Positions 22,614-63,347 of a DNA stretch of 64,000 bases are shown piece after piece. Numbering within the stretch: position 1 is the stretch's first letter; each line of letters begins with the position of its first letter. The notes beneath the pieces are model-generated. The model worked only from the letters and a program-made list of their open reading frames with translations. It had not been told where the DNA came from and ran no database searches. The position numbers and the translations under genes were made by a program. Where the stretch lies: the IMG/VR virus record IMGVR_UViG_3300028025_000089. The stretch is one strand, 5' to 3'. The stretch is from a virus. Its lineage: Duplodnaviria > Caudoviricetes.

Positions 22614-23493
22614 CTTGTTTTAAATGTTTTACTAACTTATCAACGCTTATATTTTCTTTATCTGCCAATCTTTTAATTGCTTCAATATTTCTCATCAATA
22701 TTTTTGACATAACATCATTATCATCTTTTTCTTCTTTTCTTTTTTTAACAACTTCTTTGTCTTTTGATTTTTTTGATAACAATATTTCATCAATCATGTT
22801 TTCCATTTTTTCTTTTTCCAATTCAGAAAGTCTTCTTTTTGTGAAACATTTTTTACATCTACCTCGTTTTTTTTGATTTTTTAAATCTTTATCTAACTTT
22901 CTATCAAAACCAAATCTTTTAAGTCTTTCATTCCTTTCAAATGGATCTTTAACGTCTAACTTATTTTTCAATATTTTATTTGCAACATTATAAGTTGGTG
23001 CAAATTCAATTTCTTCCCAACCAAATGATTCAGATTGATCAACTTCAGATATTGTTTTTTCACTTTCTTCACTTTCACCGTAATAAATACGAATAAATGG
23101 CCATTGTTGTGCTCTACTCATACGAACCGTTTGGTCCATCGTTTTCTTTGCCAAATTCCTTTGGTTCAAAATTGGAATGCTAGATCCCATTAAAGATCCG
23201 TCAGGATTAACCAATTCGCCAATCTCACCATCAGGTTTTTGTTTTGATTTAGATTTTTTATCTAAAAGTTTATGAACATATTCTTTTGATAATTTTTTTC
23301 CAGATTTAATTATGTTTGAAATTATTTTTTGAATATCCTCAAAAACCTCTTTGTCAACAACAATCACCTCGTCATTTTCTCTTGATTCGGTTATTGTGTT
23401 TGATACTGAATAATATATTGCAATTTTATCGCCCTTATCTTTTAAATAAAAATAATAAGGAGAGTTAAAATATTCTGTGTTAAGTTTAATCAT
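22606..23493 (-). CDS. Hypothetical Lys/Glu-rich protein
   Basis: 295 aa, first gene after TATTTAT at 23509-23515. Confidence 0.6.
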   Translation of the reverse strand: MIKLNTEYFNSPYYFYLKDKGDKIAIYYSVSNTITESRENDEVIVVDKEVFEDIQKIISNIIKSGKKLSKEYVHKLLDKKSKSKQKPDGEIGELVNPDGSLMGSSIPILNQRNLAKKTMDQTVRMSRAQQWPFIRIYYGESEESEKTISEVDQSESFGWEEIEFAPTYNVANKILKNKLDVKDPFERNERLKRFGFDRKLDKDLKNQKKRGRCKKCFTKRRLSELEKEKMENMIDEILLSKKSKDKEVVKKRKEEKDDNDVMSKILMRNIEAIKRLADKENISVDKLVKHLKQGE

Positions 23494-23546: not shown

Positions 23547-25916
23547 ATGGCTTACCAAAATATAAATCAATATAATTATCAAAAGTTAAAAATGCAAGTC
23601 ATTTATGACGGGCAAGATATGTCATTGGCTTCTGATGAGGTTGATTTTAACCAAGAAGTTGTGTTCTCACCCTTTTTAATTGCAATTGATAATGGAAAAA
23701 AACTTCCAATCTCGTTGAATCTTAATAGTCCATTAACAACACAAAACTTGAATTTAACGTATGGAGTTTATAATCCAAACAACGTTATTGTTTCTGAAAA
23801 TTTTTATCAACCCGACGATTTAAACTTAAATTGTTTTAGTGCAAATTCAACATGTGATATTGGATTAACAGGTATTGATAATGGATTGGTCACAAAAATA
23901 AAGGGTGATGACTTGTATTATACCAATGGTTTATTTAACGACATAGAAAAATTTGATAGATTATATTATGACAGACGTATGAAGTTTATTCAAACAACGA
24001 CAAACGTTCCTGATAATAATAAATTTTCGGGCATAACTGATTACACATATTATCAAATGGTTTCAAAAACAAGTCCAATATTTGGTAGATACGTTGAGTT
24101 ATATGGTGGATTTTATCAGGGGTTTTATAAGTTGTTTGGTTATGACTATGATATATTACCCGAAAGAATGAATAAAGGTTGGTCGGTTGAAATGTTGTTA
24201 AAACCTAGATTCATCGACGAATTTGCACCTCCATCGGGTTATACAACTTTAAATCAAATTTACCCTAATAATAAGAATACATTTTTTTATATGGGGGCAA
24301 GAGCCGAAAACAAATTTTATCATTATGCCGATGGTTCCCCAAAATGTGAACCAAGTTATGTTAGAATTACTTCGGGTTTAACAAAAGAAGAAACTTGTGC
24401 TTGTTGTAATTATGAAATTAAAAATAGTAGATGTATATACGTTTATCCACCAAGACCAAAAGGTGGTGTTTATGATCCACATGTAAATTATGGTTGTAAT
24501 TTATGTAAAGGTGATGATAATCAAAAAATTACTTGCGGATGTAAATGTTATGAATCTCCGTGTGAGACTTGTGGTTGGATGTGTTTTGATCATAAATGTA
24601 ATTCCATAATCGTTCCAACACCAACACCCACACCAACCCCATCACCAACGGTTCCTTGTGATACTTATCCTCAAATAATTCAATGCACCGTAACTCCTTC
24701 ATGTTGCACATCTTGTCAATCTTGTGGTTGTGATGTTTGTGGATGTCCTCCGAAATCGGCATCAACAACTTTTTCATCTGTGGAAGATACTTGTGAAAAA
24801 GATCCCAAGTTTGATGCGTTGTCTAATAACATATCTTTTAGATTGTGTGGTGATCCACAAAATCCTGGTATTGGTGTTCGAGCAATTAAAATCACGGGTG
24901 ATTGTATTACAACAGGAGAATGTATTACAGGTCAAACTTATGTGACAGGATACACCATAGTTGATATTTGCACCCCACCAATATATCCATATTGTTTAGA
25001 AGTTAATCCTGATTGGTTAGACGTAGAACATTGGTTTTTACTAAATGTGGTTTGGGAAAGATATACTTATTGGGATTATTGTGATTTAAGATGGTTCGGA
25101 GGTTTAGATGATATTACAAGAGTCGAATACCTTCAAAGTTTAGCAAACAATGCGGTGTCTTTAATTGGTCCACCATATACAAATGGTTATGAAGTTCCAG
25201 GTCAAATAGAAATTGTCCAGTTAAATCAAAGATGGTTAGACGACACCAAGTTTAGAATGGGTCGATTGAAGATTTATATAAATGGTCGAATATTCTATAC
25301 AATAGAAGACTTTGAAGAAGTTATACCTCGAGCGTTAGATACTGACAAAGAAAAACAAGTTGGAGTTCCTTTCAACATGTCATGGGGAGGTGGAACTCAA
25401 GGTCTTCACGAAAATCTAACATTAAACTTTTGTAATATATGGAATTACTCTGCTGGTAGTGTGACCACAAATATTTTATATGTCGATTGTAATGGAAATC
25501 CTGCAAGTTTAACCGGTTTAACAAATACGACTGGAAGTATAATAGTTGATAAAAATAACACACCAACAATAACAGTTCCTGATACTAATAATGCAGTTAG
25601 TTTTAGTGGCAATTACCATTTAAAAAGTGATGACTATAATCAAGATCCTGAATGTTTTCCTGAAAATATTTTAAGTGCGACTACCTTAAACAAACTTAAA
25701 ACACATATACTATTAGAAGAAAACTTTGCAGGAACTTTCGATGGGGCAATTTCACAGTTTAGATTTTATACAGAACCATTATCATCACCTGAAGTAAAAC
25801 ATAATTTCAAATTACTAAGAGACACATTTTATATGTTTGATCCTGATTGTCCAAATTGTGACTTGGCATCTTGTCTTCCAAATGATTTTACATACACTAT
25901 AATTAATAACGAATAA
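23547..25916 (+). CDS. LamG/concanavalin-like virion protein with large Cys-rich insertions
   Basis: GWSVEMLLKP, LKIYINGR, FDGAISQFRFYTEPLSSPEVKHNF (LamG C-terminal motif); 38 Cys. Confidence 0.65.
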   Translation: MAYQNINQYNYQKLKMQVIYDGQDMSLASDEVDFNQEVVFSPFLIAIDNGKKLPISLNLNSPLTTQNLNLTYGVYNPNNVIVSENFYQPDDLNLNCFSANSTCDIGLTGIDNGLVTKIKGDDLYYTNGLFNDIEKFDRLYYDRRMKFIQTTTNVPDNNKFSGITDYTYYQMVSKTSPIFGRYVELYGGFYQGFYKLFGYDYDILPERMNKGWSVEMLLKPRFIDEFAPPSGYTTLNQIYPNNKNTFFYMGARAENKFYHYADGSPKCEPSYVRITSGLTKEETCACCNYEIKNSRCIYVYPPRPKGGVYDPHVNYGCNLCKGDDNQKITCGCKCYESPCETCGWMCFDHKCNSIIVPTPTPTPTPSPTVPCDTYPQIIQCTVTPSCCTSCQSCGCDVCGCPPKSASTTFSSVEDTCEKDPKFDALSNNISFRLCGDPQNPGIGVRAIKITGDCITTGECITGQTYVTGYTIVDICTPPIYPYCLEVNPDWLDVEHWFLLNVVWERYTYWDYCDLRWFGGLDDITRVEYLQSLANNAVSLIGPPYTNGYEVPGQIEIVQLNQRWLDDTKFRMGRLKIYINGRIFYTIEDFEEVIPRALDTDKEKQVGVPFNMSWGGGTQGLHENLTLNFCNIWNYSAGSVTTNILYVDCNGNPASLTGLTNTTGSIIVDKNNTPTITVPDTNNAVSFSGNYHLKSDDYNQDPECFPENILSATTLNKLKTHILLEENFAGTFDGAISQFRFYTEPLSSPEVKHNFKLLRDTFYMFDPDCPNCDLASCLPNDFTYTIINNE

Positions 25917-35098: not shown

Positions 35099-35653
35099 TT
35101 ATTTTTTTATATGTTGATTTACAAACTGTAAAATAATTTGATTTTTTTCTTCATCTGTTTTTGCGTTAGCCCATAACCATAAAAAAGAAGTTTCAAGTGA
35201 TTTAAGTTCTTGTTTTTTTTCGTTCACAATTTTTTCTAAAAGAAAAATATTTGTTTCATCTAAATCTACCTCTATAGATAATTTTTGGGCTATTTTATAT
35301 AAAGTCAATAGATCATTTTTGTCATAAGCCCTTTGAGCATCAGTATACATTGTCACCAAATAAACATCTGTGGTTTTATCGGGATGACAAAATTTTGCAA
35401 TACTTCTAAAAACACTTTTTATTTTAAGTAATTCTTCGTCAGAAACCTCGTATTTTTTATCAACTTTTTTATTTTCGTTTTTAGTATCCCCAGATTGAAT
35501 TGGTATTTCTTCGCCAAGATCGTGAATTTCTTTCATGAATAATGGTCTGTAATGAGAATTAAACTCATCAACATATTCTTCTTCTGATTCTAATAGATTT
35601 AACTCCTTTATTAGAAGTCTTAACTTTAAGTTATTTAATTTTTTGTTTGACAT
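35099..35653 (-). CDS. J-domain (DnaJ-like) co-chaperone
   Basis: KSVFRSIAKFCHPDK...AQRAY (HPD motif in a helical hairpin). Confidence 0.8.
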   Translation of the reverse strand: MSNKKLNNLKLRLLIKELNLLESEEEYVDEFNSHYRPLFMKEIHDLGEEIPIQSGDTKNENKKVDKKYEVSDEELLKIKSVFRSIAKFCHPDKTTDVYLVTMYTDAQRAYDKNDLLTLYKIAQKLSIEVDLDETNIFLLEKIVNEKKQELKSLETSFLWLWANAKTDEEKNQIILQFVNQHIKK

Positions 35654-35741: not shown

Positions 35742-38700
35742 ATGCCAATATATAATAGATTAACAGACCGTCAAAAAGTTTCAGCTGTAACTTTAAATGA
35801 TATATTTCACGTAGTAGTTACGGGAGACACAACACAGAGCCCTCAAGGATCATCTTATTATGCTCCTTTGAGTGATCTACAATCATTATTAAGTGGTTCT
35901 ACAGGTCCTGCAGGAACTTCAGGAACAAACGGAACAAGTGGAACAAACGGAACTTCAGGGACAAATGGTTCTAGTGGAATTAATGGAACATCAGGAACTA
36001 ACGGAAGTTCGGGGACAAATGGATCTAGCGGAACCAATGGAACATCAGGAACAAACGGAACTAATGGGACATCTGGAATTAGCGGATCTTCAGGGACTTC
36101 AGGTTCAAGTGGAAGTTCAGGTTCAAGTGGAAGTTCGGGAACTAATGGAACAAGTGGAACTAATGGTAGTTCAGGAACAAATGGATCTTCAGGGACTAAT
36201 GGGACATCAGGAACTAATGGAACTAGTGGGACAAACGGGACTAATGGAACATCGGGATCATCAGGCACGAGCGGATCAAGTGGGACATCAGGGACTAACG
36301 GAACTAGCGGAACAAACGGGTCATCAGGAACTAATGGAACTAGTGGTTCTTCAGGAGCCAATGGAACTTCAGGGACTAATGGAACTAGTGGTTCTTCAGG
36401 AACTAACGGAACTTCAGGGACTAATGGGTCTAGTGGTTCTTCAGGAACTAACGGAACAGACGGATCAAGTGGGAGTAGCGGCACTAACGGAACGTCAGGT
36501 GCTAATGGCTCAAGTGGGACTAATGGGACATCAGGAACTAACGGAACTGACGGATCAAGTGGAACAAATGGCACGTCAGGGTCTAGCGGCACAAATGGAA
36601 CTTCAGGAAGTAGCGGAACTTCTGGAACAGATGGTTTAACATGTATAAATTATACTTTATCAGCACCAGGACCGACCGACTCACAATTTACAGGAACAAC
36701 ATGCGATGGAGTTCAACAAACAGGTAATGTTGCATCTGGAACCTCATACAGTGATTGTTTTATTAGTGGTTCTGTAACTATGAATAATGGTGGTATAATA
36801 ACAAATAATGGAATTTGTGTTGGAACGTCAGGGACAAGCGGGACTAACGGAACTAATGGAACATCAGGAACGAATGGAAGTGATGGGACGAGCGGAACTA
36901 ATGGAACATCAGGAACTAATGGAACATCAGGGACGAATGGAACCGATGGTTCAAGTGGAATTAATGGTTCTTCGGGAACTAACGGGACTTCGGGAACTAA
37001 CGGAACAGATGGTACTAGTGGTCTAAATGGAACATCAGGAACGAATGGGACTTCAGGAACAGATGGTATAAGCGGAACAAATGGGACATCAGGAACTAAT
37101 GGTTCAAGTGGATCGTCAGGCACAAATGGAACAGATGGAACAAGTGGGACTAACGGGACATCAGGGTCTTCAGGAACAAATGGAACTGACGGAACTAGCG
37201 GTTCTTCAGGGACAAATGGAACTGACGGAACTAGTGGTTCTTCAGGGACAAATGGGGCCGATGGTTCAAGTGGAACAAATGGGACTTCAGGAACTAACGG
37301 GTCTAGTGGGACAAATGGAACCGATGGAACATCCGGAACTAATGGGACTGATGGTTCAAGTGGGTCTAGCGGAACTAATGGAACTAGCGGTAGTTCAGGA
37401 ACAAATGGTACAAATGGAACTGACGGAACTTCTGGTACTAATGGAACCGATGGAACATCAGGGACAAACGGGACTAGCGGTAGTTCAGGAACAAATGGAA
37501 CTGACGGAACTTCTGGTACTAATGGAACCGATGGGTCAAGTGGAACTAGCGGAACTAATGGAACATCAGGAACTAATGGAACCGATGGTTCAAGTGGAAC
37601 TAATGGTTCTTCAGGGACTAATGGAACTGACGGAACATCGGGAACGAATGGAACAAGCGGAACTGACGGAACATCAGGATCTAGCGGAACAAATGGTACA
37701 AGTGGGACTAACGGAACGTCAGGAACTAATGGGACCAATGGAACTTCAGGGACTAACGGTAGTTCAGGAACTAACGGAACCGACGGAACATCTGGAACTA
37801 ATGGAACGTCAGGATCTAGCGGAACTAATGGCACCGATGGGTCAAGTGGAACTAGCGGAACTAATGGAACATCAGGAACTAATGGAACCGATGGAACAAG
37901 CGGAACAGGATTTAACACAGTTCAAGATCCCGCATTAACAAGAGTATTAACTTCTGACGGCACTCCAAACGGAGCAATTGCTCAATCAGGTTTAACATAT
38001 AATGGAACACAATTAACGGTTACGGGTCTTACATATACTAGTGGTGTTACATCGACCTCTAAAATTACATTTCCACAAATAACAATCAATAGTAGTTATA
38101 CGGCAACTACAAATGATTACATGATAGATGTTACAGGAGGAACATTTACAGTTTCTTTACCAAGTGCTGTAGGTATTCAAGGAAGATTATTAGTTGTTAA
38201 AAATAATGGTGGGGGTGCAGTAACCGTAGATCCATATGGAAGTGAAACTATTGATGGAAAACCATTTGTTATTTTAGGCGAAACAAACTCAATACAATTA
38301 GCAAGTAATGGAAGTGAGTGGGTTGCATTAGGATATAATATATCAACCGTAAACTCTTCAACAGGTGTTTTTGAATTTACGGGACTAACAAAAGTATCAA
38401 ATACAACCTTTAATGTTGCACGTGTTAAAGGATGGATAGTTGATGATACAACTAACCCTTTAAGTCCCCAACTTTATTATGTAGATTTTAGTGGTGGAAC
38501 ATTTACCGATAATTATGTGACCACCGATTTTGAAACCTTTGTTTATTTAACAAGTGGTGGAACAATTGGTCAGCAACCAACAATCTTAACAGAACAACAA
38601 AGAAGACAAAATATCTTTTTAGGTAAAATAGGACACCCTGAAAAAACATCAATTAATTTAGTTTTTTCTCAACCTGATTTTGTCCAATCTCCATTATCAC

Positions 38701-41700
38701 AACTTCGTGATATGTTTGTTCCAATTAATTTAATTAATGGTGGGGTATATCCTTCACCTAATGGGGCAAATTTAAAAATTAATACAAGTGCGGGTTACAT
38801 ATATGGTTTGGGTATTAATTTCGCATCGAATACATTAGAACCAAATTCATTATCAATATCAGGAACTAGTCCTTGCACATTTCAATATAGAACTCAAACA
38901 GGTGGGACGGTTACAAATGTTACTGATATTGATCCACTTAACTATGATGTTGGTGGAGTTAAAACACCAATAACAGGAACTAAAACAACAAACCAAAGAA
39001 TTTTTTTATTACAAAATGGTTCGTTTAGAATTCAATACGGTCAAAACGTTTATACCACATTTGCAGAAGCGGTTGCATCATTACAAACCGAATCATTCAC
39101 GGAATTCCCTAATTTTATTAACAATGCCGTTCTTATTGGAATCTTAACGGTGACATCGACCGCAACTGATTTAACGGATCCTGCAAAGGCAAGATTTTTC
39201 TTCGCATCCAAATTTGGTGAAACTGTAGGTGCTGCGGGAGGAGTGTCAACAACAAACTTACAACAGGCATACAACAACTCATCTCAACCTGAAATCACAA
39301 CTAATTCAACATTAGGTGCTGTTTCAATTAAAAGAGGTAGTGCTTCTGACGCTGATCATGTATTTGAAATTCAAGATGGTGCTGGTGTTGATAGAATGTT
39401 AGTTAATGGTTCAGGTAGAACAACAACGACAGATTTAACAATTACAGGTCTTACAGTTAATTCAGGATTGACAAGATTTTTAGTTGTCGATACAAGTGGA
39501 AACACATATTACAGAACAAGTGGTGCCGATGGAACATCGGGAACTAACGGGACATCAGGGACTAATGGAACTAGTGGTAGTTCAGGAACTAATGGTACAA
39601 GTGGAACCAATGGAACTAGCGGTAGTTCAGGGACAAATGGAACATCCGGCACAAACGGGACTAGCGGTTCTTCAGGGACTAATGGGACAAACGGGACATC
39701 TGGAACGAATGGCACAAGTGGAACAAATGGAACTAGTGGTTCTTCAGGAACTAATGGAACAAACGGCACATCAGGGACTAATGGAACATCTGGCACAAAT
39801 GGTTCTTCGGGGACTAACGGTAGTTCAGGAACAAATGGAACATCTGGCACAAACGGGACTAGCGGTAGTTCAGGAACAAACGGGACTTCAGGAACTAATG
39901 GCACAAGTGGAACCAATGGAACTAGCGGTAGTTCAGGCACAAATGGAACATCCGGCACAAACGGGACTAGCGGTTCTTCTGGAACCAATGGAACAAGCGG
40001 TAGTTCAGGCACAAATGGAACATCAGGATCTAGCGGAACTAATGGAACATCAGGAACTAATGGAACTAGCGGTTCTTCAGGCACAAATGGAACAAGCGGA
40101 ACCAATGGGACTAGCGGTAGTTCAGGAACAAACGGAACAAATGGAACTTCAGGGTCTAGCGGAACTAATGGAACAAACGGTAGTTCAGGCACAAATGGAA
40201 CATCAGGATCTAGCGGAACTAATGGAACCAATGGAACATCGGGAACAAACGGAACTAGCGGTAGTTCAGGGACTAACGGCACATCAGGAACAAATGGGAC
40301 AAGTGGAACTTCACCAACAGTTCCAGGATCAAATGACCAAGTATTAACTTCAAACGGGTCAGGTGGAATAGTTGCAGAATCTTTATTAACATTTGATGGA
40401 ACTAAATTAAGTATGTTATACCAATCAGGTGATGAAGGTGGTGAATTATTCTTAAACAAGGCGGTTACCAATACAACATTAAGTGGTGGAATTACAATAG
40501 ATTCATACCAAAATAAATTAAGATTTTTTGAACAAGGTGGAACTGCGAGAGGTGCGTATATTGATTTAACAGCATGTGCTGCCGGTGTTGGCACAAATTT
40601 ATTAAGTGGTGGTGGAACGACTAGTGGAACAAATGGAACATCGGGAACCAATGGAACATCGGGAACTAATGGAACAAACGGAACATCCGGCACTAATGGC
40701 ACAAGTGGAACTTCAGGATCTAGCGGAACTAATGGAACATCGGGATCTAGCGGAACTAATGGAACATCGGGAACCAATGGGACTTCAGGGTCTAGCGGAA
40801 CTAACGGAACAAGCGGAACCAATGGGACTAACGGAACAAGCGGTTCTTCAGGCACTAATGGAACTAATGGAACAAGCGGAACGAATGGAACTAATGGTTC
40901 TTCAGGAACAAACGGCACATCAGGGACAAACGGGACATCTGGCACTAATGGAACAAGTGGTTCTTCAGGGACTAATGGAACTTCAGGGACTAATGGGACT
41001 AGCGGTTCTTCAGGGACAAATGGAACATCGGGAACCAATGGGACTTCAGGGTCTAGCGGAACTAATGGAACATCGGGGTCTAGCGGAACTAATGGAACGT
41101 CAGGAACTAATGGAACAAGTGGTTCTTCAGGAACTAATGGAACTTCAGGAACAAATGGAACTTCAGGAACAAATGGAACTAGTGGTTCTTCAGGGACAAA
41201 CGGGACAAGTGGTAGTTCAGGCACTAATGGAACTAATGGTACAAGTGGAACTAACGGTAGTTCTGGAACTGACGGAACAAGCGGAACAGGATTTTCATCA
41301 ATTTCACCAACTACAAATGATAACATATTAACAGCAAACGGAACTTCAAATTCTGCAGATTCAGAACCAAATTTAACATTTGACGGAATAAATAATATTC
41401 TGAATGTAACGGGTAGAACCAACATGACAGACTCAACTGCAGCACCAGCACCTTCGTTAAGTATTGTAAGTAACCCAACAGTACCGGTTAAAAGAACAAT
41501 ATCTGTTACTAATTCAGGTGACGGTATAAATACAAATGATCTATTTGGAGTTCAAACATTAGTGACAGGTGCGGTTAATAGTGCAATTGGATACTCTACT
41601 GACGTTTCAGATGCCGTAGGAGAAAATATTGGTGTTGATATTATCAATGCTTCAAGTCAGTCAGGATCAACTCAATGGGGGTCAAGAACAAACGTTGTGA

Positions 41701-42725
41701 GTGCTGGACCAGATATTAAATATGGTCACTACACTTTATTGGCCAACGGAGGTAAAGATAATTATGGTAATTATAATCAAGTTTCTGACGGGACAAATTC
41801 AAACACAGCTTACTATGGTAATGTAACGGGAATTGTAAATAAATTTGGTTACGTATTACAAGGAACAAACTCTTCAGCAAAACCATCAGGTAGTGATACA
41901 CAATATGGTGTGTCTCTTACCGTTAATGGTGCAGGTAACACATCAAGCACACAAAAATACGGAGGTTACTTTGATGTAAGTGGGGATGCTAAAGGACATA
42001 GTGGTATATATACTAAAGCCCAAAGTGCCACCGCAGCTAATTATGGTGTTGAGGCATATGCCTCGGGTATATATGGAAATAATTATGGTATTTACGCTTT
42101 AAATGATACAGTAGTTAGTGGAGGTTTAGACGTTCAACATGGTGGGTATTTTGAATCCACTGGTTTTGGTGATGTAACATCAACAATAAAATATGGTGTT
42201 TTTGCGTCGGCTTCAAACACGTCACTTGAAAACTATGGTTTATTTACTCAAGCAAATGGTGGTGATAAAAATTATTCATTATATGCTGCCGCTGGTAGAT
42301 GGACATTAAGACACGACCCGAATGTCGAATTAGGTATAAGTGACCCTGAAGGTTATGGTGACATTGTATATTTTGGTGGTGGAGGAAGTTCATTTGCAGC
42401 CGGTGATGTTGTTTATTTAAACGCAACAGGTGATTGGTCACCAACAGATGCTGGTAATTCTGGTAACTCAACAAATATGTTAGCATTAGCTCTTGGTAAC
42501 AATGTGTCAGATGGACTTTTGATTAGAGGTTACGCATATTCAAGTAGTTGGAGTTGGACCATTGGTGCACCTTTATATTTGGTTTCTGGAACTGCAGGGG
42601 CTATGACAAATACAGCACCATCAAGTGGAGGTGACGTTGTTAGAATAGTTGCTTATTCTATAGACTCGGCAACAGGAGGAAAAAAAATATATTTTAATCC
42701 TGATAATAGTTGGACAATAGCTTAA
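35742..42725 (+). CDS. Giant Gly-X-Y (GTS/GTN/GSS/GTD) collagen-like fibre protein, 2327 aa
   Basis: Four Gly-X-Y blocks separated by beta-rich fibre domains; beta-solenoid NYG repeats and a decoration-like C-terminal domain. Confidence 0.85.
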   Translation: MPIYNRLTDRQKVSAVTLNDIFHVVVTGDTTQSPQGSSYYAPLSDLQSLLSGSTGPAGTSGTNGTSGTNGTSGTNGSSGINGTSGTNGSSGTNGSSGTNGTSGTNGTNGTSGISGSSGTSGSSGSSGSSGSSGTNGTSGTNGSSGTNGSSGTNGTSGTNGTSGTNGTNGTSGSSGTSGSSGTSGTNGTSGTNGSSGTNGTSGSSGANGTSGTNGTSGSSGTNGTSGTNGSSGSSGTNGTDGSSGSSGTNGTSGANGSSGTNGTSGTNGTDGSSGTNGTSGSSGTNGTSGSSGTSGTDGLTCINYTLSAPGPTDSQFTGTTCDGVQQTGNVASGTSYSDCFISGSVTMNNGGIITNNGICVGTSGTSGTNGTNGTSGTNGSDGTSGTNGTSGTNGTSGTNGTDGSSGINGSSGTNGTSGTNGTDGTSGLNGTSGTNGTSGTDGISGTNGTSGTNGSSGSSGTNGTDGTSGTNGTSGSSGTNGTDGTSGSSGTNGTDGTSGSSGTNGADGSSGTNGTSGTNGSSGTNGTDGTSGTNGTDGSSGSSGTNGTSGSSGTNGTNGTDGTSGTNGTDGTSGTNGTSGSSGTNGTDGTSGTNGTDGSSGTSGTNGTSGTNGTDGSSGTNGSSGTNGTDGTSGTNGTSGTDGTSGSSGTNGTSGTNGTSGTNGTNGTSGTNGSSGTNGTDGTSGTNGTSGSSGTNGTDGSSGTSGTNGTSGTNGTDGTSGTGFNTVQDPALTRVLTSDGTPNGAIAQSGLTYNGTQLTVTGLTYTSGVTSTSKITFPQITINSSYTATTNDYMIDVTGGTFTVSLPSAVGIQGRLLVVKNNGGGAVTVDPYGSETIDGKPFVILGETNSIQLASNGSEWVALGYNISTVNSSTGVFEFTGLTKVSNTTFNVARVKGWIVDDTTNPLSPQLYYVDFSGGTFTDNYVTTDFETFVYLTSGGTIGQQPTILTEQQRRQNIFLGKIGHPEKTSINLVFSQPDFVQSPLSQLRDMFVPINLINGGVYPSPNGANLKINTSAGYIYGLGINFASNTLEPNSLSISGTSPCTFQYRTQTGGTVTNVTDIDPLNYDVGGVKTPITGTKTTNQRIFLLQNGSFRIQYGQNVYTTFAEAVASLQTESFTEFPNFINNAVLIGILTVTSTATDLTDPAKARFFFASKFGETVGAAGGVSTTNLQQAYNNSSQPEITTNSTLGAVSIKRGSASDADHVFEIQDGAGVDRMLVNGSGRTTTTDLTITGLTVNSGLTRFLVVDTSGNTYYRTSGADGTSGTNGTSGTNGTSGSSGTNGTSGTNGTSGSSGTNGTSGTNGTSGSSGTNGTNGTSGTNGTSGTNGTSGSSGTNGTNGTSGTNGTSGTNGSSGTNGSSGTNGTSGTNGTSGSSGTNGTSGTNGTSGTNGTSGSSGTNGTSGTNGTSGSSGTNGTSGSSGTNGTSGSSGTNGTSGTNGTSGSSGTNGTSGTNGTSGSSGTNGTNGTSGSSGTNGTNGSSGTNGTSGSSGTNGTNGTSGTNGTSGSSGTNGTSGTNGTSGTSPTVPGSNDQVLTSNGSGGIVAESLLTFDGTKLSMLYQSGDEGGELFLNKAVTNTTLSGGITIDSYQNKLRFFEQGGTARGAYIDLTACAAGVGTNLLSGGGTTSGTNGTSGTNGTSGTNGTNGTSGTNGTSGTSGSSGTNGTSGSSGTNGTSGTNGTSGSSGTNGTSGTNGTNGTSGSSGTNGTNGTSGTNGTNGSSGTNGTSGTNGTSGTNGTSGSSGTNGTSGTNGTSGSSGTNGTSGTNGTSGSSGTNGTSGSSGTNGTSGTNGTSGSSGTNGTSGTNGTSGTNGTSGSSGTNGTSGSSGTNGTNGTSGTNGSSGTDGTSGTGFSSISPTTNDNILTANGTSNSADSEPNLTFDGINNILNVTGRTNMTDSTAAPAPSLSIVSNPTVPVKRTISVTNSGDGINTNDLFGVQTLVTGAVNSAIGYSTDVSDAVGENIGVDIINASSQSGSTQWGSRTNVVSAGPDIKYGHYTLLANGGKDNYGNYNQVSDGTNSNTAYYGNVTGIVNKFGYVLQGTNSSAKPSGSDTQYGVSLTVNGAGNTSSTQKYGGYFDVSGDAKGHSGIYTKAQSATAANYGVEAYASGIYGNNYGIYALNDTVVSGGLDVQHGGYFESTGFGDVTSTIKYGVFASASNTSLENYGLFTQANGGDKNYSLYAAAGRWTLRHDPNVELGISDPEGYGDIVYFGGGGSSFAAGDVVYLNATGDWSPTDAGNSGNSTNMLALALGNNVSDGLLIRGYAYSSSWSWTIGAPLYLVSGTAGAMTNTAPSSGGDVVRIVAYSIDSATGGKKIYFNPDNSWTIA
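35895..36641 (+). repeat. Gly-X-Y block 1 (83 triplets)
   Basis: 747 nt = 83 x 9 nt. Confidence 0.85.
36822..37901 (+). repeat. Gly-X-Y block 2 (120 triplets, rich in GTD)
   Basis: 1080 nt = 120 x 9 nt. Confidence 0.85.
39522..40313 (+). repeat. Gly-X-Y block 3 (88 triplets)
   Basis: 792 nt = 88 x 9 nt. Confidence 0.85.
40626..41282 (+). repeat. Gly-X-Y block 4 (73 triplets)
   Basis: 657 nt = 73 x 9 nt. Confidence 0.85.
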
Positions 42726-53117: not shown

Positions 53118-53624
53118 ATGGAATTTTTCATTAAGAAAGGTGCGACCCTTCCTGTTTTAAAAATCAACGTTATTAAAGACGGTAGATCTGACTATGATAG
53201 AACTATGCGGTATTTAGAAGAGACCGACATATTTTTTTCTATGGTCGATACTGAAACAGGTATACCAAAGTTTACATCAAGACCTGCGGGTGTGATGAAA
53301 AAAGAACAATTAAATACAAACCTTCAAACGGAGTATTATGTTTATTATCAATTCACACCTAACGACACAAAAAAAGTTGCAAGATACAAAGGTCAATTTC
53401 TTTTTAGAAATGAAACAGGTTATTTAATACTTCCTTTAAATCAAGAAATATATGTAAATGTTACTGATAGTTTTATAATAAATGATTTTGAATATCAAAG
53501 TTGTTATGTTGTAGATTTTCCTTGTTGTAAATCACAACCTGTTCCACCACCAATTCCTCCAATACCAACAACCACAACATCAACCATACCAACAACCACA
53601 ACATCAACCATAACCGGTTTATAA
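53118..53624 (+). CDS. BppU-N-like baseplate/fibre-attachment protein, paralog 1, with Pro/Thr tail
   Basis: FFIKKGATLP, VYYQFTPNDT, YKGQF; PPPIPPIPTTTT tail. Confidence 0.55.
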   Translation: MEFFIKKGATLPVLKINVIKDGRSDYDRTMRYLEETDIFFSMVDTETGIPKFTSRPAGVMKKEQLNTNLQTEYYVYYQFTPNDTKKVARYKGQFLFRNETGYLILPLNQEIYVNVTDSFIINDFEYQSCYVVDFPCCKSQPVPPPIPPIPTTTTSTIPTTTTSTITGL

Positions 53625-53664: not shown

Positions 53665-54468
53665 ATGGAATTTACTATAGGTCAAAACTCTACGCTCCCT
53701 CTTTTAAAATTACAGGTTGTAAAGGATGGGATCAGTGATTACGAGTCCATGATGAATTTTATTGAAACCTCATCGATATTTTTTTCGATGACAAACATTG
53801 AGACTGGTGTTTTAAAAATAAATGCTAAGGCAGCAAGTTTTGTTGAAAAATTAGAGTTAAACCCAAATGCTAGTCCTGAGTATTACGTTTATTATAAATT
53901 CACACCTCAAGATACAAACAAAGTTGGAAGATATGAAGGTCAGTTTGTTTTTATAAATGAAACAGGAACATTAGTATTACCAATTAGAGAAAAGTTATAT
54001 ATTAATATACTTGAAAGTTATATGTCAAATGATTTGGTATATAATAATTGTTATGTTTTGGATTATAGATGTTGTGTAACACCTTTCCCAACAAACACAC
54101 CAAGTCAAACTCCATATCCTATTTTGAGTATGACCCCTACTCAAACACCTACTCAAACACCTACACCAACAGTAACACCTACAAACACATCCACACCTAC
54201 AGTAACACCTACAAACACATCCACACCTACTCAAACATTAACACCAACGGTAACACCAACAAATACATTTACGTCCACCCAAACGGTAACACCAACAAAT
54301 ACTCAAACAGTAACACCAACAAATACTCAAACAGTAACACCAACTCAAACACCTACCCCAACTCCAACACCAACTCAAACACCAGCGGTCGTTGTATTAA
54401 TCAATCCAATAATAACCGAAAATGATGAATATATTATCGTTGGTAATAATGAATATTTAAAATTTTAA
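53665..54468 (+). CDS. BppU-N-like protein, paralog 2, with long Pro-Thr repeat
   Basis: First ~135 aa align by eye with 53118..53624; [10 protein letters not shown] and TPTNTQTV repeats at about 54128-54385. Confidence 0.6.
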
Positions 54469-54491: not shown

Positions 54492-56348
54492 ATGGCACTA
54501 ACAGGTAAAACAATTGGAGAATTAGAATATCTACAATTCCCAACAAATGAAACTTTAATTCCAGTACAATATATTGGGGACACTTATCATATTACATTTT
54601 CTTCGATAACATATAACGAAGGGACATATGCACAGTTTGTTGCAGAAGCAGGAGCCGGTGTTCTTACACCAGGTAGATTTTATTTGATGACAGATTATCA
54701 GGCCATTTATGACCAACCTAACTATGATAATTTCAAAACTCCCATCTTTACAGGTAACAGTATGACAGGTATTACCGAACCATTATTATTACTTGCAATA
54801 TCAGAAACGCAGTTTTCACCTACGGTATATTCAACATTATATCCTCAAGATCAAATAACATATGATATAACTTGGAATACGACTGAAATCTCAAGCACAC
54901 CAGCAAAAGGTAGGATTACAGAAAGAATTGACATATACAACAACAGAACAGACTACGATCATAGAAATATTTTATTTAAAAGATATCGCGGGTATTCATA
55001 TGATCAAAATAATCCACTGAGTGGTCTTGTAGGGATAAGTGGTATAACAGGAAATACTGGTGTATTATATGGAAACACAGGAACAACATTTAATTCAAAC
55101 TTATTTGTTGGAAGTTATATTGCGGTGAGAAATTTAAATCCATATATTTTTGAAGTTATTTCAGTTGAGAGTGATTCTCTTGCTACAATATCAGGTGTAA
55201 CTATAAGTGAAACTAATGACTCATCTTATTATTACGGAAATGACGATGGGATAATGAGTTATTACCAAGCAAATGTAAGACAAGATTTAGTTTATGAATA
55301 CACAACATTTGGTGATGCCATTGATGATAATGGTGCTGTAAATAATTATGTTGGTAATTACTCAAATCTTTATTTATACGAAGGGGTTGGAAACTTTTTA
55401 TTGGCAAATAATGTATTCTTAGTGGGTGCTTACAGAAACAACACTATTGGTGACGGATCTCGTAATAATACATTTAACGATGATTGTTATGATAACCAAA
55501 TAGGGTCTAATTTTTATAACAACTCCACAAATGATGATTTTGATAGTAATATAATCGGTGATAATTTCCGTGACAATTTTATTACCGCTAATTTCCAACG
55601 AAACAGAATTGGTTATAATTTTTATGATAATATTTTAACAGGATCTGATTTTTACAGAAACAATATCGGAAATGATTTTAATGGAAATGTTTGTAATAAC
55701 AACGACTTTCAAAATAATGAGATAGGAAATCAATTTAACAATAATGAAATTTATAATAATTTTTATAAAAATGACATAGGTAATGGTTATAACGGTAACA
55801 ATATCTACAGTGATTTTTATGGTAATTTGATTGGGAACGGATATAATAATAATACTATTTATACGAGTTTTAGAGATAATGTAATTGGTGATTATTTTGA
55901 TAATAACACAATTGGTGACAATACAAACATCGGAGGATTTTCGTTTTATTTAAATAATATCGGGTATTACTTCCAAAGTAACATTATATTAGGAACCTTT
56001 GCCTATAATGAAATAGGTAGTAATTTCCAAAATAATAATATTGGTGACGGATTTGGGTTTGGGATTTCTACAAGTCAAGGAAATAAAATAGGAAATTATT
56101 TTTACAATAATATAATCGGTGAATATTTTTATAATAATGTGATTGCAGATGGATTTTATTTTAACACAGTAGTTGATTTTTTCCAATTAAATGATGTAAA
56201 ATTTTCATTATTTTCTACCGATTTTAGCACATCAACATATGTTTATGGTGACTATAATTGCACTTTATTTAAAAACTCGGTATTATCCCCAAGACTTTCT
56301 TACTTTGACGGGTCGGATACTTTGATGGTAGTTAATGTGACCGATTAA
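54492..56348 (+). CDS. Putative tail fibre/spike with Asn-ladder beta-solenoid
   Basis: About 9-residue N-x-IG-x-x-F-x-x repeats over roughly 55400-56180. Confidence 0.65.
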   Translation: MALTGKTIGELEYLQFPTNETLIPVQYIGDTYHITFSSITYNEGTYAQFVAEAGAGVLTPGRFYLMTDYQAIYDQPNYDNFKTPIFTGNSMTGITEPLLLLAISETQFSPTVYSTLYPQDQITYDITWNTTEISSTPAKGRITERIDIYNNRTDYDHRNILFKRYRGYSYDQNNPLSGLVGISGITGNTGVLYGNTGTTFNSNLFVGSYIAVRNLNPYIFEVISVESDSLATISGVTISETNDSSYYYGNDDGIMSYYQANVRQDLVYEYTTFGDAIDDNGAVNNYVGNYSNLYLYEGVGNFLLANNVFLVGAYRNNTIGDGSRNNTFNDDCYDNQIGSNFYNNSTNDDFDSNIIGDNFRDNFITANFQRNRIGYNFYDNILTGSDFYRNNIGNDFNGNVCNNNDFQNNEIGNQFNNNEIYNNFYKNDIGNGYNGNNIYSDFYGNLIGNGYNNNTIYTSFRDNVIGDYFDNNTIGDNTNIGGFSFYLNNIGYYFQSNIILGTFAYNEIGSNFQNNNIGDGFGFGISTSQGNKIGNYFYNNIIGEYFYNNVIADGFYFNTVVDFFQLNDVKFSLFSTDFSTSTYVYGDYNCTLFKNSVLSPRLSYFDGSDTLMVVNVTD

Positions 56349-59594: not shown

Positions 59595-60722
59595 TTAAAT
59601 AACGTATATTTGACGAGGCATTGCTCTAAACTTTAATTGTTTGTTAAGATTTTCTGCTAATAGTGCTTCACGCTCCATTACTTTTTCAGGACGAAGTCTT
59701 GTTAATCTTCCTTCTGCACCAATTAACTCTTCCAGAAGTTTAGCCTTTTCGTCTTTTCCTTCGGTCGCCATTGTAGTATAATCCATTGTAAGATCACCAT
59801 CAGGAGTTTTTAGGTTTCCACTAAACTTACCTCTAACACGAGCTAATGTTTCTTTACAATAAGCAACAAACCATTTTCTAACCCAAATTTGTGCGGGATT
59901 GTTTAATTTTTCCCAAGACATTTTATTAAAAGGAACATCTGAAGGTAATAAAATAATATCAGGATTATCCGCTAAACACTTATCTCTATCTCCTTGTGAC
60001 GTATCATAATACCAATACCAAACTTGACCTTGGGCCAATTCCGAATTTCCGAAATCAAACTTACCTCCAGGGGTATTTAAAAGGTGTAACGCTTTTTTAC
60101 CACCAGGAAGTGCTGTGATATAATATGTTAATTCACCCGCAAATATTCTTCTTTGTATGTTAACTTCTTGCATTCTTAATAATGTATCAAATACTGGTGT
60201 TAAATAATAACTTCCTGCCATGTTACCAATTTGAGCAAGACCTCCACCACCACCTAAACCAGTTCCATTACCAACTCCGGCAAAACCACCTAAACCAAAC
60301 AATAAATTATTAAGGGTTGTTGGGGTGAACCATAAAACTTCATTAATTTCACGACCTGCCGGTATTTCGTAAATTTGTTGATTAGGAACTAATTGTATGT
60401 AATCTTTTTTAATTTCCCAATCACCTCCGGCTTGTAGACCAACTATTTTAGAATATGCATAAGTATAACGAGTTTCAAAATCTAAACTTTTGGTTATGAA
60501 AGCTCGAGATAAAGATTGAGTATCAAGATTTAAGTTATACAATGATGTCCATTGTGATTCTATTAACCAATCCTGAACATATTGAGAATAATCATCAATA
60601 GAATATTCAAGTAAAGTATCCATCATTTCATCCTCTAATTCTACAGATCTTAAAGGTGCTCCAAGTAAATGTCTAACTTTTTGATAGAACTGACTTCTTT
60701 CCGGTTCGCTAATTATTGCCAT
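59595..60722 (-). CDS. Neck/head-completion protein (T4 gp13-like)
   Basis: LGAPLRSVELEDEMM at the N-terminus; WVRKW..AYCKE.L..VRGKF...EGKDE..KL at the C-terminus. Confidence 0.75.
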   Translation of the reverse strand: MAIISEPERSQFYQKVRHLLGAPLRSVELEDEMMDTLLEYSIDDYSQYVQDWLIESQWTSLYNLNLDTQSLSRAFITKSLDFETRYTYAYSKIVGLQAGGDWEIKKDYIQLVPNQQIYEIPAGREINEVLWFTPTTLNNLLFGLGGFAGVGNGTGLGGGGGLAQIGNMAGSYYLTPVFDTLLRMQEVNIQRRIFAGELTYYITALPGGKKALHLLNTPGGKFDFGNSELAQGQVWYWYYDTSQGDRDKCLADNPDIILLPSDVPFNKMSWEKLNNPAQIWVRKWFVAYCKETLARVRGKFSGNLKTPDGDLTMDYTTMATEGKDEKAKLLEELIGAEGRLTRLRPEKVMEREALLAENLNKQLKFRAMPRQIYVI

Positions 60723-60751: not shown

Positions 60752-62896
60752 TTAGATAATTATTTTGTTTAACTCTTTTTTATAGAAATTTATCATCTCA
60801 GAAATTTCAATATTTTCACCACCCAATTCTTTTATTTTATCTGTAAAATATTTAATTCTATCTCTATAAAATTCAATTTGTTTATTAACATCTTTTGATA
60901 TGAATTGTTTTACAGGTGCTTTTTGTGTTTCTTTTTGTAATGGAACTTTAAAGTTACTTTGAAGTGGCATTTCATAATAATATATATAATATGGTGGATT
61001 TCTTCTTGAGGTGCTTACCGTTAAAATTTTACTATAATCGTTTCTAAACATGATGTATTTTTGTTCTGCTCTATCAACATACAAAATTATATCAACATTT
61101 TCTTCTTTATATTTTTTGTTTGTGTGCCAAGATTCCACCTTAAAATAATATCCCCTATCTCCACCATCAAAAAATTCAATATGATTAAGGCTATTTGTAA
61201 AAGGTTTGACTTGGAAATAAATTGTGTCTCCTCCTTTAATTTTTAAAACTATATCTTGACCTTTTTTTCTATCATTAATATCTCCCGAACAATGTTCATA
61301 CAACTCATAAGTCATACCTTCTTCATCAGGATTTAATTTATATATTTGTCGAATAATACTTGTTGCATAATTTTCATTCTCTTTACCAACTTCTATTGTC
61401 CCAACGTTTATTTCCGCCAAACGATCTAAATACATTCCTTCATTTGCGAAAAGGTCATAAGCATGTTCTTTAATCCATGTTTTAAAATCTGTTAACCCTT
61501 CAGTTTCTTCTAACCAAATGTTATATATTTCTTTTTTAACTTTACTATTGGTATCAAAACGATTGACGATAGACCATTGACTTGTTCCTCCGTGTTTTTT
61601 TTCTGCATAATCACCACCTAAAATACCAACATCTGTGGTGCATTTTTTTGTTTGGATTCTACCTATACAACCATTTTTATATTGTTTACCAAGACAACCT
61701 ACATATTGTGAATTAATTAAATCTCTTAATTGTTTTGGTGTGTATGGAAATGCGAAAGTTGTGCTAATTTCATTTATAATTTCTTTAGACTCAACACTCT
61801 CTTTAATATTTTCTTTTTTTGTCTTTGACAAATATAAATCGTTTACAAACTCCCAATTAACAACATCCCAAAATTTTGAAATGTATTCATCTCTTTTGTT
61901 TTGATATTTTAAATAATATGCATGTTCCCAAACATCAAGACCCAACAATGGAAATCCACCTTTTTTAACAACATTCATAAGTGGGTTGTCCTGATTTGGA
62001 GTTGACATTATTTTTAATTTTCCATCTTTTGATAGATACAACCACGCCCATCCTGAACCAAAACGATCTTTCGCCGCTTGATTAAATTCGTCTTTTAGTT
62101 TTTTTATGTTACCAAAATCTTTTTTAATCTTTTCATATATTTCACCATGAGGTCGTTGTTTTTTTGGGGACAACATTTTCCAAAATAATGCGTGGTTAAA
62201 AGCTCCTCCAGCATTGTTTCTAACTTTATTATCGTATTTACTGATTGTTTTAATAATATCTTCTAACTCTAAATCACCTTTTTTATCTTTCAATGCATCA
62301 TTCAATTTATCAACATAACCTTTGTAGTGTTTGTTGTAGTGAACGTTCATTGTTTTGGAATCAATAAACCGAGATAAAGAAGAATATGAATAAGGTAATT
62401 TTTCAATACCTATTTTTTTCATTTCAACCAACAAATTATTTTTGGTTTCAATTTTTTGTTCTAATAAAATTTGAGTTTCTAAAATTAAAAGTTTGTTATT
62501 AATTTTTTTATGTTCATACATTAATTGTTCCATTTCAGGATTTTCTTTTTCAAACATTTTAATAAGTCGTCCTGCAAAAGCATTTGCTTCATCTTCATTT
62601 TTACCACCGATGTCTGGACCTTTTTTTCTTTTTAAAACATCCATTTGGTGTTCATGAACCCATTCATGTGCTAAGGTTCTCATAATATCTCTATTCATAC
62701 GATCACCAACCAAGACTTTAATTGTGTTATCAGACCTCCTACTACCTGTAGACATTTCACCTTTTTGTTGATTTAAAAAAAATACTTTAACATCGTTTTT
62801 CAAAGGAAATTCACGTTGCAGAAGTTCAGTAAACTTTGTAATAAAGTCGGTATATTTTTTAAAATCTTTATTTTCTATGGTTAGTTTTACGTTCAT
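60752..62896 (-). CDS. Three-domain fusion: ImmA/IrrE-like HExxH domain + Mn-type superoxide dismutase + PD-(D/E)XK-like domain
   Basis: RTLAHEWVH...EDEANAFAG; LPYSY, HYNKHY, NNAGGAFNH, FGSGWAWL, TPNQDNP, DVWEHAYY; D..KGQD...FQVKP; start corrected to 62896. Confidence 0.85.
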   Translation of the reverse strand: MNVKLTIENKDFKKYTDFITKFTELLQREFPLKNDVKVFFLNQQKGEMSTGSRRSDNTIKVLVGDRMNRDIMRTLAHEWVHEHQMDVLKRKKGPDIGGKNEDEANAFAGRLIKMFEKENPEMEQLMYEHKKINNKLLILETQILLEQKIETKNNLLVEMKKIGIEKLPYSYSSLSRFIDSKTMNVHYNKHYKGYVDKLNDALKDKKGDLELEDIIKTISKYDNKVRNNAGGAFNHALFWKMLSPKKQRPHGEIYEKIKKDFGNIKKLKDEFNQAAKDRFGSGWAWLYLSKDGKLKIMSTPNQDNPLMNVVKKGGFPLLGLDVWEHAYYLKYQNKRDEYISKFWDVVNWEFVNDLYLSKTKKENIKESVESKEIINEISTTFAFPYTPKQLRDLINSQYVGCLGKQYKNGCIGRIQTKKCTTDVGILGGDYAEKKHGGTSQWSIVNRFDTNSKVKKEIYNIWLEETEGLTDFKTWIKEHAYDLFANEGMYLDRLAEINVGTIEVGKENENYATSIIRQIYKLNPDEEGMTYELYEHCSGDINDRKKGQDIVLKIKGGDTIYFQVKPFTNSLNHIEFFDGGDRGYYFKVESWHTNKKYKEENVDIILYVDRAEQKYIMFRNDYSKILTVSTSRRNPPYYIYYYEMPLQSNFKVPLQKETQKAPVKQFISKDVNKQIEFYRDRIKYFTDKIKELGGENIEISEMINFYKKELNKIII

Positions 62897-62897
62897 T

Positions 62898-63326
62898 CTA
62901 TTTTGACATTTCAAACATAATTATATCTGATTCTTTATAGTATGGACCTATGTTTGTTTGATAAGTAACGGTTGCTTTGTATTCACCCGATTCTAACGGT
63001 CTATAAATATTTGAGTTTGAGTCCGCAATTGGTTCATTATTTAATAACCAAACCCATGTTAATGATGTTACGGTTATTGGAAATTGCGTTGGGGACATAA
63101 CAATTAAATCGGAACCATCAATCATAACATCTAATCTGTTACCAAACACTAAAGATAATAAAGCATTTTTAAGTCCATCTATTTGTTCTTGTAATGTTAC
63201 ATCTACCTGATCGTTTATTGAATCTTCAGTAGATATTTTAGTTTCTAATGATTCGTCAATAGAATCTAATGAACTAAGATCTTCACTTAATCCATCAATT
63301 TGACTTTGATCTAATTTTGTTGGCAT
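62898..63326 (-). CDS. Small virion-type protein with C-terminal Ig-like motif
   Basis: WVWLLNNEPI...SGEYKATVT; late motif upstream. Confidence 0.55.
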   Translation of the reverse strand: MPTKLDQSQIDGLSEDLSSLDSIDESLETKISTEDSINDQVDVTLQEQIDGLKNALLSLVFGNRLDVMIDGSDLIVMSPTQFPITVTSLTWVWLLNNEPIADSNSNIYRPLESGEYKATVTYQTNIGPYYKESDIIMFEMSK

Positions 63327-63340
63327 AATTTATTTTTATA

Positions 63341-63347
63341 ATAAATA
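63341..63347 (-). promoter_or_regulatory. Putative late promoter TATTTAT
   Basis: 14 nt upstream of ATG at 63326. Confidence 0.55.

Follow-up and report, generated by a model that had tools for sequence, protein, structure and literature searches.

A lake phage protein joining a zincin fold, a Mn-type superoxide dismutase and a nuclease-like domain: possible head cargo with joints that resemble leader peptides

What a superoxide dismutase (SOD) would be doing in the middle of a phage protein, between a metallopeptidase-like domain and a nuclease-like one, is the question raised by one gene of the IMG/VR virus record IMGVR_UViG_3300028025_000089, of which a stretch of 64,000 nucleotides (the window) was analysed. 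The window has the composition of AT-rich phage DNA (~30% GC), and its source is an uncultured freshwater jumbo phage of the T4 superfamily. A first-pass annotation, made from the letters alone, had described three domains in a single frame here, and 60752-62896 (-) is indeed one 714-aa open reading frame (ORF) with the described elements in their places; the frame extends over 60752-62914 (-) without internal stops, and the ATG at 62896, the start codon common to all homologues, opens the 714-aa fusion protein. The answer that is put forward here, tentatively and with somewhat less than even confidence, is that the fusion would be cargo that is made late, packaged in the head and cut by the prohead protease into three proteins. 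Its parts are as follows.

62513..62896 (-): minimal zincin (zinc-metallopeptidase fold) domain, residues 1-128
62654-62668 (-): HEWVH, residues H77-E-W-V-H81
62582-62599 (-): NEDEAN, residues 100-105, followed by A-F-A
62405..62512 (-): linker 1 (residues 129-164), rich in (I/L)xE and predicted to form one long helix
62423-62431 (-): LVE that ends the motif run of linker 1, followed by M159
61826..62404 (-): Fe/Mn-family SOD, residues 165-357
61757..61825 (-): linker 2, residues 358-380, predicted to be disordered
61799-61807 and 61769-61777 (-): IKE and INE in linker 2
61409..61756 (-): first half of the C-module, residues 381-496, with Cys 401, 410 and 419 invariant and a WSxxNRFDTN motif
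60950..61408 (-): PD-(D/E)xK (restriction-endonuclease-like) core, predicted, residues 497-649, with E508, D548 (GQD) and Q562-V-K564
60752..60916 (-): C-terminal helical hairpin and stop codon, residues 661-714

The evidence lies chiefly in the joints. Motifs of the (I/L)xE type had been reported at both borders of the SOD, and they are there, with LILE, LLE and LVE within residues 137-158 before M159 and IKE and INE within residues 364-376. Twelve [IL]xE motifs occur in the fusion, and the three at the domain borders are the most conserved, that at residues 156-158 being retained in 38 of 40 non-redundant homologues, that at 364-366 in 37 and that at 374-376 in all 40. Relative to the expectation from composition, across 36 homologues, [IL]xE is 2.2 times as frequent in linker 1 and 4.1 times as frequent in linker 2, against 0.6-1.0 times in the domain interiors. 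The rest of linker 1 is variable in sequence (about 50% identical), and in linker 2 nothing but the two Glu is invariant over the first 36 columns when the C-terminal parts are aligned. A joint of the form K-K-(L/I)-x-E-(S/N) follows the SOD ahead of at least five unrelated C-terminal domains, and K-K-(L/I)-x-E recurs as the joint between tandem C-modules.

What such joints may once have been is suggested by relatives without the zincin, which consist of a leader, the SOD and two tandem modules of the C type. Their N-terminal leader has 21-30 aa and ends in (I/L)xE right before (M/A)-(K/R)-K-I-G-I, and linker 1 corresponds to it, the leader taking the form MLLENKLNLLSEKINTSEFLLLE followed by MKKIGIEK. 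In one relative the same locus holds a stand-alone SOD of 250 aa, with a 30-aa leader that ends in FINE directly ahead of MRKIGIE; an ordinary cytoplasmic SOD has no such N-terminal extension. The C-module likewise occurs as stand-alone proteins of 250-400 aa, and in 46 of 54 of these relatives an [ILV]xE falls within residues 1-30, a motif that 33% of internal windows contain. Starts that recur among them are MKIIITESQ...LxE, MKELILEILKE and MxKxxEExxRIKxLMG...xE or MxKIREEVDKIKEIMG..., and in one of them (P0168) the last Glu of the leader stands six residues ahead of an FP..P motif, the very spacing that E376 has in the fusion.

Leaders of this kind are abundant in a close relative, G002 (272,576 bp, 93% complete), which has the same synteny and 82% identity in the fusion protein, and in which three types of C-module leader are found on 17, 7 and 6 genes. 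These ~30 genes (L077-L090, e.g. 228-264 kb; also L070:5109-5870) begin with MKRIIRLTESDLARIVRRVINE or MKIIITE.Q..., with MKNIIIEEINRIK... or with MKELIRHILKEE..., their payloads are unrelated, one of them being lytic-transglycosylase-like, and most of the genes are preceded by TATTTAT. As a set they resemble the internal-protein arrays of T4 at a much larger scale.

The prohead protease of T4 reportedly has the consensus (L/I)-x-E, and the first-pass annotation had taken a protease of that type as its premise. The premise is now grounded in the lineage itself, as the relative with 82% identity encodes both a protease of the T4 gp21 type and a Gp23 capsid protein with a matching site. The protease, Peptidase_S77 (PF03420), was found in G002 and in two other relatives (81 bits vs a cut-off of 27, 1e-22), and in G002 its gene, at 184046-184774, is adjoined by an acidic scaffold-like gene and by that of Gp23 (PF07068, 2.8e-73), which reads ...ENQASFLINE/ASSDG at about residue 60, a T4-like site (the stroke marks the cut). 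In T4 itself, gp21 removes 65 residues of gp23, and the internal proteins and Alt lose short peptides to it at their N-termini, the leaders of 10-20 aa being cut C-terminal to Glu, with ~10 aa targeting the cargo to the core (PMC9958956); prohead-protease cleavage C-terminal to Glu is known from both T4 and giant phages (PMC5694885). The Gp23-type capsid gene of G002 lies at 180236-182143 (L086:236-2143, minus strand) and encodes 635 aa; it has 1,760 matching records among T4-type phages, its best database relatives being an uncultured 484-kb phage (LR756508) and Microcystis phage Mel-JY01 (~43% identity), and the lineage appears as a deep branch of the T4 superfamily.

The three payloads can each be placed. 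For the N-terminal part, an alignment of 28 diverse homologues has H77, E78, H81, E101, E103 and N105 invariant and N100-E-D-E-A-N105 kept, and the AlphaFold model (predicted local distance difference test, pLDDT, 89) opens N-terminally with a strand and a helix, continues with a sheet of three strands and the helix of the HExxH, and ends with a Glu-bearing helix and the long helix 129-161. The HExxH lies in helix 69-87 and the invariant E101 and E103 in helix 99-118, either Glu being a candidate third zinc ligand according to the model, so that the modelled domain has both the helices and the fold of the zincin superfamily. In the VIA structure comparison, which was run against ~48,000 PDB representatives, nearly all of the 50 matches listed were zinc peptidases, YbeY-type zinc hydrolases or toxin domains of the same fold, with Z from 9.8 to 5.5 and a match over residues 1-~120. 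These included AQ_1354 (1oz9) at 9.8, the M30 peptidase lugdulysin at 9.7, M1 aminopeptidase cores at 8-9.3, Wss1 at 8.7, SPRTN (6mdx) at 7.4 and PprI/IrrE at 6.1, and the top Foldseek match was Wss1 (probability 1.00). The metallopeptidase-like domain of the first-pass annotation was thus right in kind.

The pattern HExxH...ExxAN.FA recalls ImmA/IrrE, and the resemblance is a likeness of motif only. Pfam gave no ImmA/IrrE (M78, PF06114) match at E up to 1, either with the whole protein or with residues 1-165, and PprI, at Z 6.1, ranks below other zincins; membership was rejected, and the domain is named a minimal zincin, not a member of M78, because the ImmA/IrrE model of Pfam does not match it. 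A profile built from the 28 N-domain homologues matched no chain among the PDB sequences. Related phages also have the zincin as a stand-alone gene of 128 aa, which ends exactly where linker 1 begins and which carries the same TATTTAT promoter motif.

For the SOD, the earlier description as a complete domain with Mn-type signatures holds. Sod_Fe_N (PF00081) matches residues 165-243 (E 1.2e-20, 74.2 bits vs a cut-off of 27) and Sod_Fe_C (PF02777) residues 249-353 (E 1.1e-40, 138.2 bits vs 20.9), while all four metal ligands (H186, H235, D321 and H325, as aligned to 6gsc) and the gateway residues H190 and Y194 are present. With NNAGG at 227-231 (G230-G231) and NQD at 301-303 (Q302), the second-sphere residues are those of a Mn-type SOD and the domain is a putative dismutase, sequence being no guide to the metal actually preferred. 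The identity with solved MnSODs is ~57% across the full enzyme (6gsc, E 1e-66), the closest structures being 6gsc, 6gsb and 5a9g, which we take to be the MnSOD of Sphingobacterium sp. T2. The Mn-SODs of Bacteroidota thus share the ligands and the Mn-type residues with the phage enzyme, but the cellular proteins have ~200 aa and, unlike the phage protein, neither leader nor fused domains. Because the nearest genomic SODs (L092-L170, 50-56% identity) are almost all from Bacteroidota (Chitinophagaceae, Flavobacteriaceae, Sphingobacteriales), a freshwater member of this phylum is suggested as the gene donor, and perhaps also as the phage host. The best match to the SOD part in the genome collection, with 67% identity and covering the MKKIGIEK start, is a 15.9 kb contig (L091, CAYVBV010000039.1) of a metagenome-assembled genome binned as Polynucleobacter, which is probably a mis-binned phage contig of the fusion's own lineage, not a cellular sequence.

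The C-terminal part was modelled with a pLDDT of 85, beginning with 18 disordered residues (362-379, pLDDT under 50). In its core (model residues 136-288, i.e., 497-649), VIA matched I-Ssp6803I (2ost) with Z 7.3, a root-mean-square deviation of 3.5 and 112 aligned residues, followed by Hjc (1gef) at 6.7, NhoI at 6.1 and DpnI at 5.3; the top PDB rows of Foldseek were I-Ssp6803I, SPARDA, D212 and EcoRV (probability 1.00, E 2.9e-3), and the matching AFDB clusters are named PD(D/E)XK endonuclease or DUF4365. As the Z values are middling, a PD-(D/E)xK fold, with its alpha-beta-beta-beta-alpha-beta core, can be assigned with moderate confidence only, which nevertheless agrees in kind with the nuclease-like domain and its D...Q-V-K that had been noticed at the outset. 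In an alignment of 28 sequences, E508, D548 and Q562-x-K564 are invariant and occupy the places expected of the catalytic E, D and (D/E)xK, GQD548 and Q562-V-K564 being fully or almost fully conserved (V563 in at least 90%). The position of the middle acid of (D/E)xK is Gln (Q562) in 28 of 28, and nuclease activity is uncertain for that reason. To the 115 residues ahead of the core, with their three invariant Cys and WSxxNRFDTN, no fold could be assigned. Nor could one be given to the terminal hairpin (helices 309-329 and 335-352 of the model), which found only generic helical matches with VIA, and Pfam and PHROGs returned for the N and C parts only DUF6055 (E 0.0075) and DUF6005 (E 0.014), both below the cut-off. 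This family of Cys-rich and PD-(D/E)xK-like domains is uncharacterised and comprises only ~80 representative clusters.

The fusion is not a rarity, its architecture being widespread in lake metagenomes. A word-indexed search found it in more than 1,296 protein clusters, many of them on contigs of 100-290 kb; the contig to which the window itself belongs has 244,736 bp, and at least 14 DNA runs from at least nine freshwater or lake studies hold half or more of the sampled words of the locus. The same open frame is present at 72 loci of IMG/VR, with 63-98% identity and conserved synteny, and both domain junctions are bridged by contigs from three independent lake studies. The misassembly of the junctions which the first-pass annotation had allowed for is refuted by these loci and contigs.

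Around the SOD, on the other hand, the modules are exchanged, as had been proposed for the homologues. Relatives that are ~80-90% identical in the N-terminal part and the SOD carry unrelated C-terminal domains of at least five types (Pfam found no match for nine alternative ones), the zincin may be absent, modules stand alone, and some loci have space for the zincin and the SOD only, judging from the distance to the neck gene. Given these exchangeable modules, the SOD is the constant core of a hypervariable locus. Identity also varies as a mosaic within single proteins, P0012 for example being 60% identical N-terminally but 97% in its SOD and 96% C-terminally, and such sharp differences between modules, seen in P0012, P0006 and P0023 against P0001, indicate that recombination at the joints would be frequent. 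No stand-alone zincin was found in the records of zincin-less phages, nor any SOD in the records with a stand-alone zincin, the records being 9-46% complete.

The simplest account of these patterns, by analogy with T4, is that the SOD and the C-module would be cargo of the internal-protein kind, with the zincin added in front. Three modules that are separate genes in related phages (the zincin, the Mn-type SOD and the Cys-rich domain with its PD-(D/E)xK-like core) would have become fused, the SOD and the C-module each bringing along, as a joint, what had been its N-terminal leader peptide. The fusion would be made alongside the head proteins and taken into the prohead, where a gp21-like protease would cut after E158 and after E366 and/or E376 to give three enzymes; should the prohead protease take off the leaders as it does in T4, cuts at the same sites of the fusion would follow. 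The released enzymes may then be kept in the head and pass into the host together with the DNA, the SOD removing superoxide early in infection and the protease-fold and nuclease-like parts acting on host targets. In its most specific form, in which one late gene loads a zinc protease, a Mn-SOD and a nuclease-like enzyme in stoichiometric amounts, their leaders internalised, separated by the prohead protease and injected with the DNA, the proposal is a doubtful one, to be credited about half as readily as not.

Several observations weigh against cleavage and packaging. The fusion has no leader of its own, since it starts within the zincin fold (strand 3-7), and the stand-alone zincin genes have none either; the 10-20-aa N-terminal leader ending in (I/L)xE that targets T4 cargo to the capsid is present in the zincin-less relatives and absent here. 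As targeting in T4 is N-terminal, the entry of the whole protein into the prohead is left unexplained, and would require an internal leader or the zincin as the signal. The presumed cut site before the SOD sits inside a long helix that is predicted with confidence. [ILV]xE is a common motif here, 33% of the 30-aa windows of the AT-rich proteome having it, and it is a relative, rather than the genome from which the window comes, that supplied the protease and capsid genes. A profile hidden Markov model (HMM) of 19 leaders from G002 scored at best 4.1 bits on the SOD family, not above the internal background of the G002 proteome, although its best match fell in linker 1 or 2 for 94 of 106 proteins. 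Homology of leaders and linkers was thus not demonstrated by profile score, and because these scores are non-significant it rests on position and on the motif pattern. The fusion has no cultured relatives (best coverage 40%, SOD part only), and it is from sequence that we infer late timing, packaging, cleavage, delivery and the enzyme activities.

Two further attempts concern the leaders themselves. A regular expression for a two-part leader gave 14 N-terminal and 8 internal matches (4.6 expected), counts that are descriptive only because it was designed after both leaders and linkers had been seen. The start MNVKLTIEN was considered as a T4-like leader of the fusion and rejected, as its Glu is not conserved and its residues form the zincin strand.

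Several of the opposing points would be natural if the protein were an uncut three-domain late enzyme acting in the infected cell, with the linker motifs as helical or flexible spacers, an explanation that we regard as rather unlikely. Such an enzyme might, for example, protect replicating or packaging DNA in a host exposed to oxygen and light, its SOD removing superoxide while the nuclease-like and protease-like parts handle damaged DNA or DNA-protein adducts. It would need no leader, linker 1 would simply be the confident helix that it appears to be, the motifs would be frequent by composition, and multi-domain enzymes have no need of cleavage; the closest zincin folds, moreover, include the DNA-protein-crosslink proteases Wss1 and SPRTN, although other zincins resemble the domain no less. 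What an uncut enzyme leaves unexplained are the extensions of 10-30 aa ending in (I/L/V)xE on the stand-alone SOD and C-module genes, the two Glu that alone are invariant in the disordered linker 2, and the presence of the same joint before unrelated domains.

It might also be that the linkers are cut, in cis or in trans, by the zincin and not by the prohead protease, which would make the fusion a self-processing polyvalent protein. The invariant catalytic residues of the zincin and the existence of stand-alone zincin genes with the same promoter motif speak for it, and the layout of the model fits the published description of the polyvalent-protein peptidase, in which an N-terminal helix and a three-stranded sheet are followed by two helices, one with the HExxH and one with the Glu (PMC5512222). 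For such zincins, however, autoprocessing has itself only been predicted (PMC5512222), the type of motif fits the T4-type serine protease that the lineage encodes, and the explanation is weakened because zincin-less forms keep the same motifs between the SOD and the tandem C-modules; we consider it improbable. An assembly chimera or a decaying gene deserves next to no credence. The depth peak that SOD genes of other organisms produce over the SOD core could in principle mislead assemblers, but the 72 loci with their conserved synteny and the independent contigs across both junctions refute this explanation; internal stops are absent, and catalytic residues are conserved in all three parts.

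Processed head cargo, the reading preferred here, can be set beside several known systems. With T4 the lineage shares short leaders ending in (I/L)xE on many unrelated payloads, as in the internal proteins and Alt, a protease of the gp21 family, a Gp23 with an ...L-x-E/A site, hypervariable cargo loci and what appears to be late-type expression. Unlike in T4 cargo, the leader-like segments are internal here and join three predicted enzymes in a protein that has no leader at its N-terminus, and the payloads (SOD, zincin and a Cys-rich nuclease-like domain) are not known T4 cargo. In the giant phages related to phiKZ (SPN3US, 201phi2-1) many head proteins are cut C-terminal to Glu, some of them at multiple sites (PMC5694885). 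Their ejection or inner-body proteins resemble the present case in being cut by a prohead protease after Glu at a short motif, but that motif is A/S/G-x-E, the propeptides often exceed 100 aa, and both lineage and payloads are unrelated.

The polyvalent proteins (Iyer et al. 2017, PMC5512222) are likewise multi-domain phage proteins with a zincin-like hub and exchangeable enzymatic domains, for which packaging and processing have been proposed (PMC5512222). With three domains and an N-terminal zincin, the fusion falls within their definition (2-15 domains, a zincin-like peptidase and effector-type enzymes; PMC5512222), in which the peptidases make up 12 published clades; it differs in being small and in having joints that carry the prohead-protease motif and would descend from leaders. 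SOD has 0 occurrences in the survey of polyvalent proteins (PMC5512222), a survey of 224 jumbo phages makes no mention of it, and a literature search on SOD, jumbo phage and virion returned nothing relevant. The nearest likeness in function is the Cu/Zn SOD (A245R) of chlorovirus PBCV-1, a late protein that is packaged in the virion and is thought to lower early superoxide (PMC7019647). Both would be virus-encoded SODs that are late and packaged, which for the phage enzyme is proposed only; A245R belongs to an unrelated family and to a giant virus of eukaryotes, stands alone and involves no proteolytic release.

What is new here is the link between the joints and the leaders of stand-alone modules, together with the T4-type protease and capsid site in the same lineage. 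If the proposal is right, it joins T4-style head cargo targeted by leaders with the multi-domain polyvalent proteins, two ideas that have so far been separate, and it implies that polyvalent proteins can arise by the fusion of leader-bearing cargo genes, the leaders turning into protease-cleavable joints, which would give T4-like phages a general 'beads on leader strings' route to build and shuffle injected cargo. The protein would also be the first virion-borne Fe/Mn SOD in a phage and would place an antioxidant enzyme among the proteins that a phage brings into the cell; to our knowledge, virus-delivered antioxidant enzymes are so far known only from giant viruses of algae and amoebae. Superoxide would then matter from the first moments of infection in sunlit, oxic lakes. 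The locus, hypervariable as it is around its constant SOD, offers a natural library of effectors that are candidates for injection, the uncharacterised Cys-rich and PD-(D/E)xK-like family among them. Were the protein an uncut cytoplasmic enzyme instead, it would still be an unreported SOD architecture, of modest interest.

The setting of the gene bears on its timing. The features next to it are these.

63341..63347 (-): TATTTAT, a late-type promoter motif, 21 nt ahead of the start of the 142-aa ORF
62898..63326 (-): 142-aa ORF, with its stop 1 nt before the ATG of the fusion; an optional neighbour
59595..60722 (-): 375-aa neck or head-tail adaptor-like gene (PHROG 211 head-tail adaptor, E 4.6e-9)

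Both the 1-nt gap and the TATTTAT ahead of 63326..62898 are thus as first described, and this copy of the motif probably drives the 142-aa ORF and the fusion gene jointly. The ORF, which has no match in Pfam or PHROG, is present in 19 of 67 related loci, and in relatives without it TATTTAT stands 12 nt before the ATG of the fusion in 17 of 23 distinct upstream regions. The locus runs from the helicase through the optional 142-aa ORF, the SOD gene, the neck-like gene of 375 aa and a 115-aa ORF to the polymerase (opposite strand), and its synteny, including the neck-like gene on the right, is kept in 62 of the 67 loci; the polymerase has only distant cultured relatives, and for the neck protein none were found.

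The neck-like gene has a TATTTAT of its own at -21. In G002 the motif stands ahead of 99 of 323 genes, spaced at -11/-12 or at about -20 to -25, and those behind it include the protease, scaffold, portal-size, tail and neck genes, many leader-tagged genes and the SOD fusion. The idea of a late gene therefore stands in so far as the fusion shares a positioned motif with head, tail and neck genes; that the promoter, and with it the timing, is late we infer from the kinds of genes behind the motif. One library of a lake metatranscriptome yielded no more than short fragments of the N-domain, of the SOD and of the upstream ORF, which bear neither on timing nor on a joint transcript.

Within the window, TATTTAT (often ATATTTAT), which is a likely late or structural promoter unlike the TATAAATA of T4, lies 12-22 nt ahead of 11 gene starts, that of the neck gene included. 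The genes are the following.

80-454, 480-1949, 5696-6067, 22606-23493, 23547-25916 and 35099-35653: genes preceded by TATTTAT
53118-53624, 53665-54468, 54492-56348, 59595-60722 and 62898-63326: further genes preceded by TATTTAT

Finally, a 2,327-aa ORF at 35742-42725 (+) departs from the rest of the window in composition (GC 0.38-0.46 vs ~0.30 elsewhere), and this stretch, with long overlapping ORFs on both strands, is repetitive or compositionally odd coding sequence.

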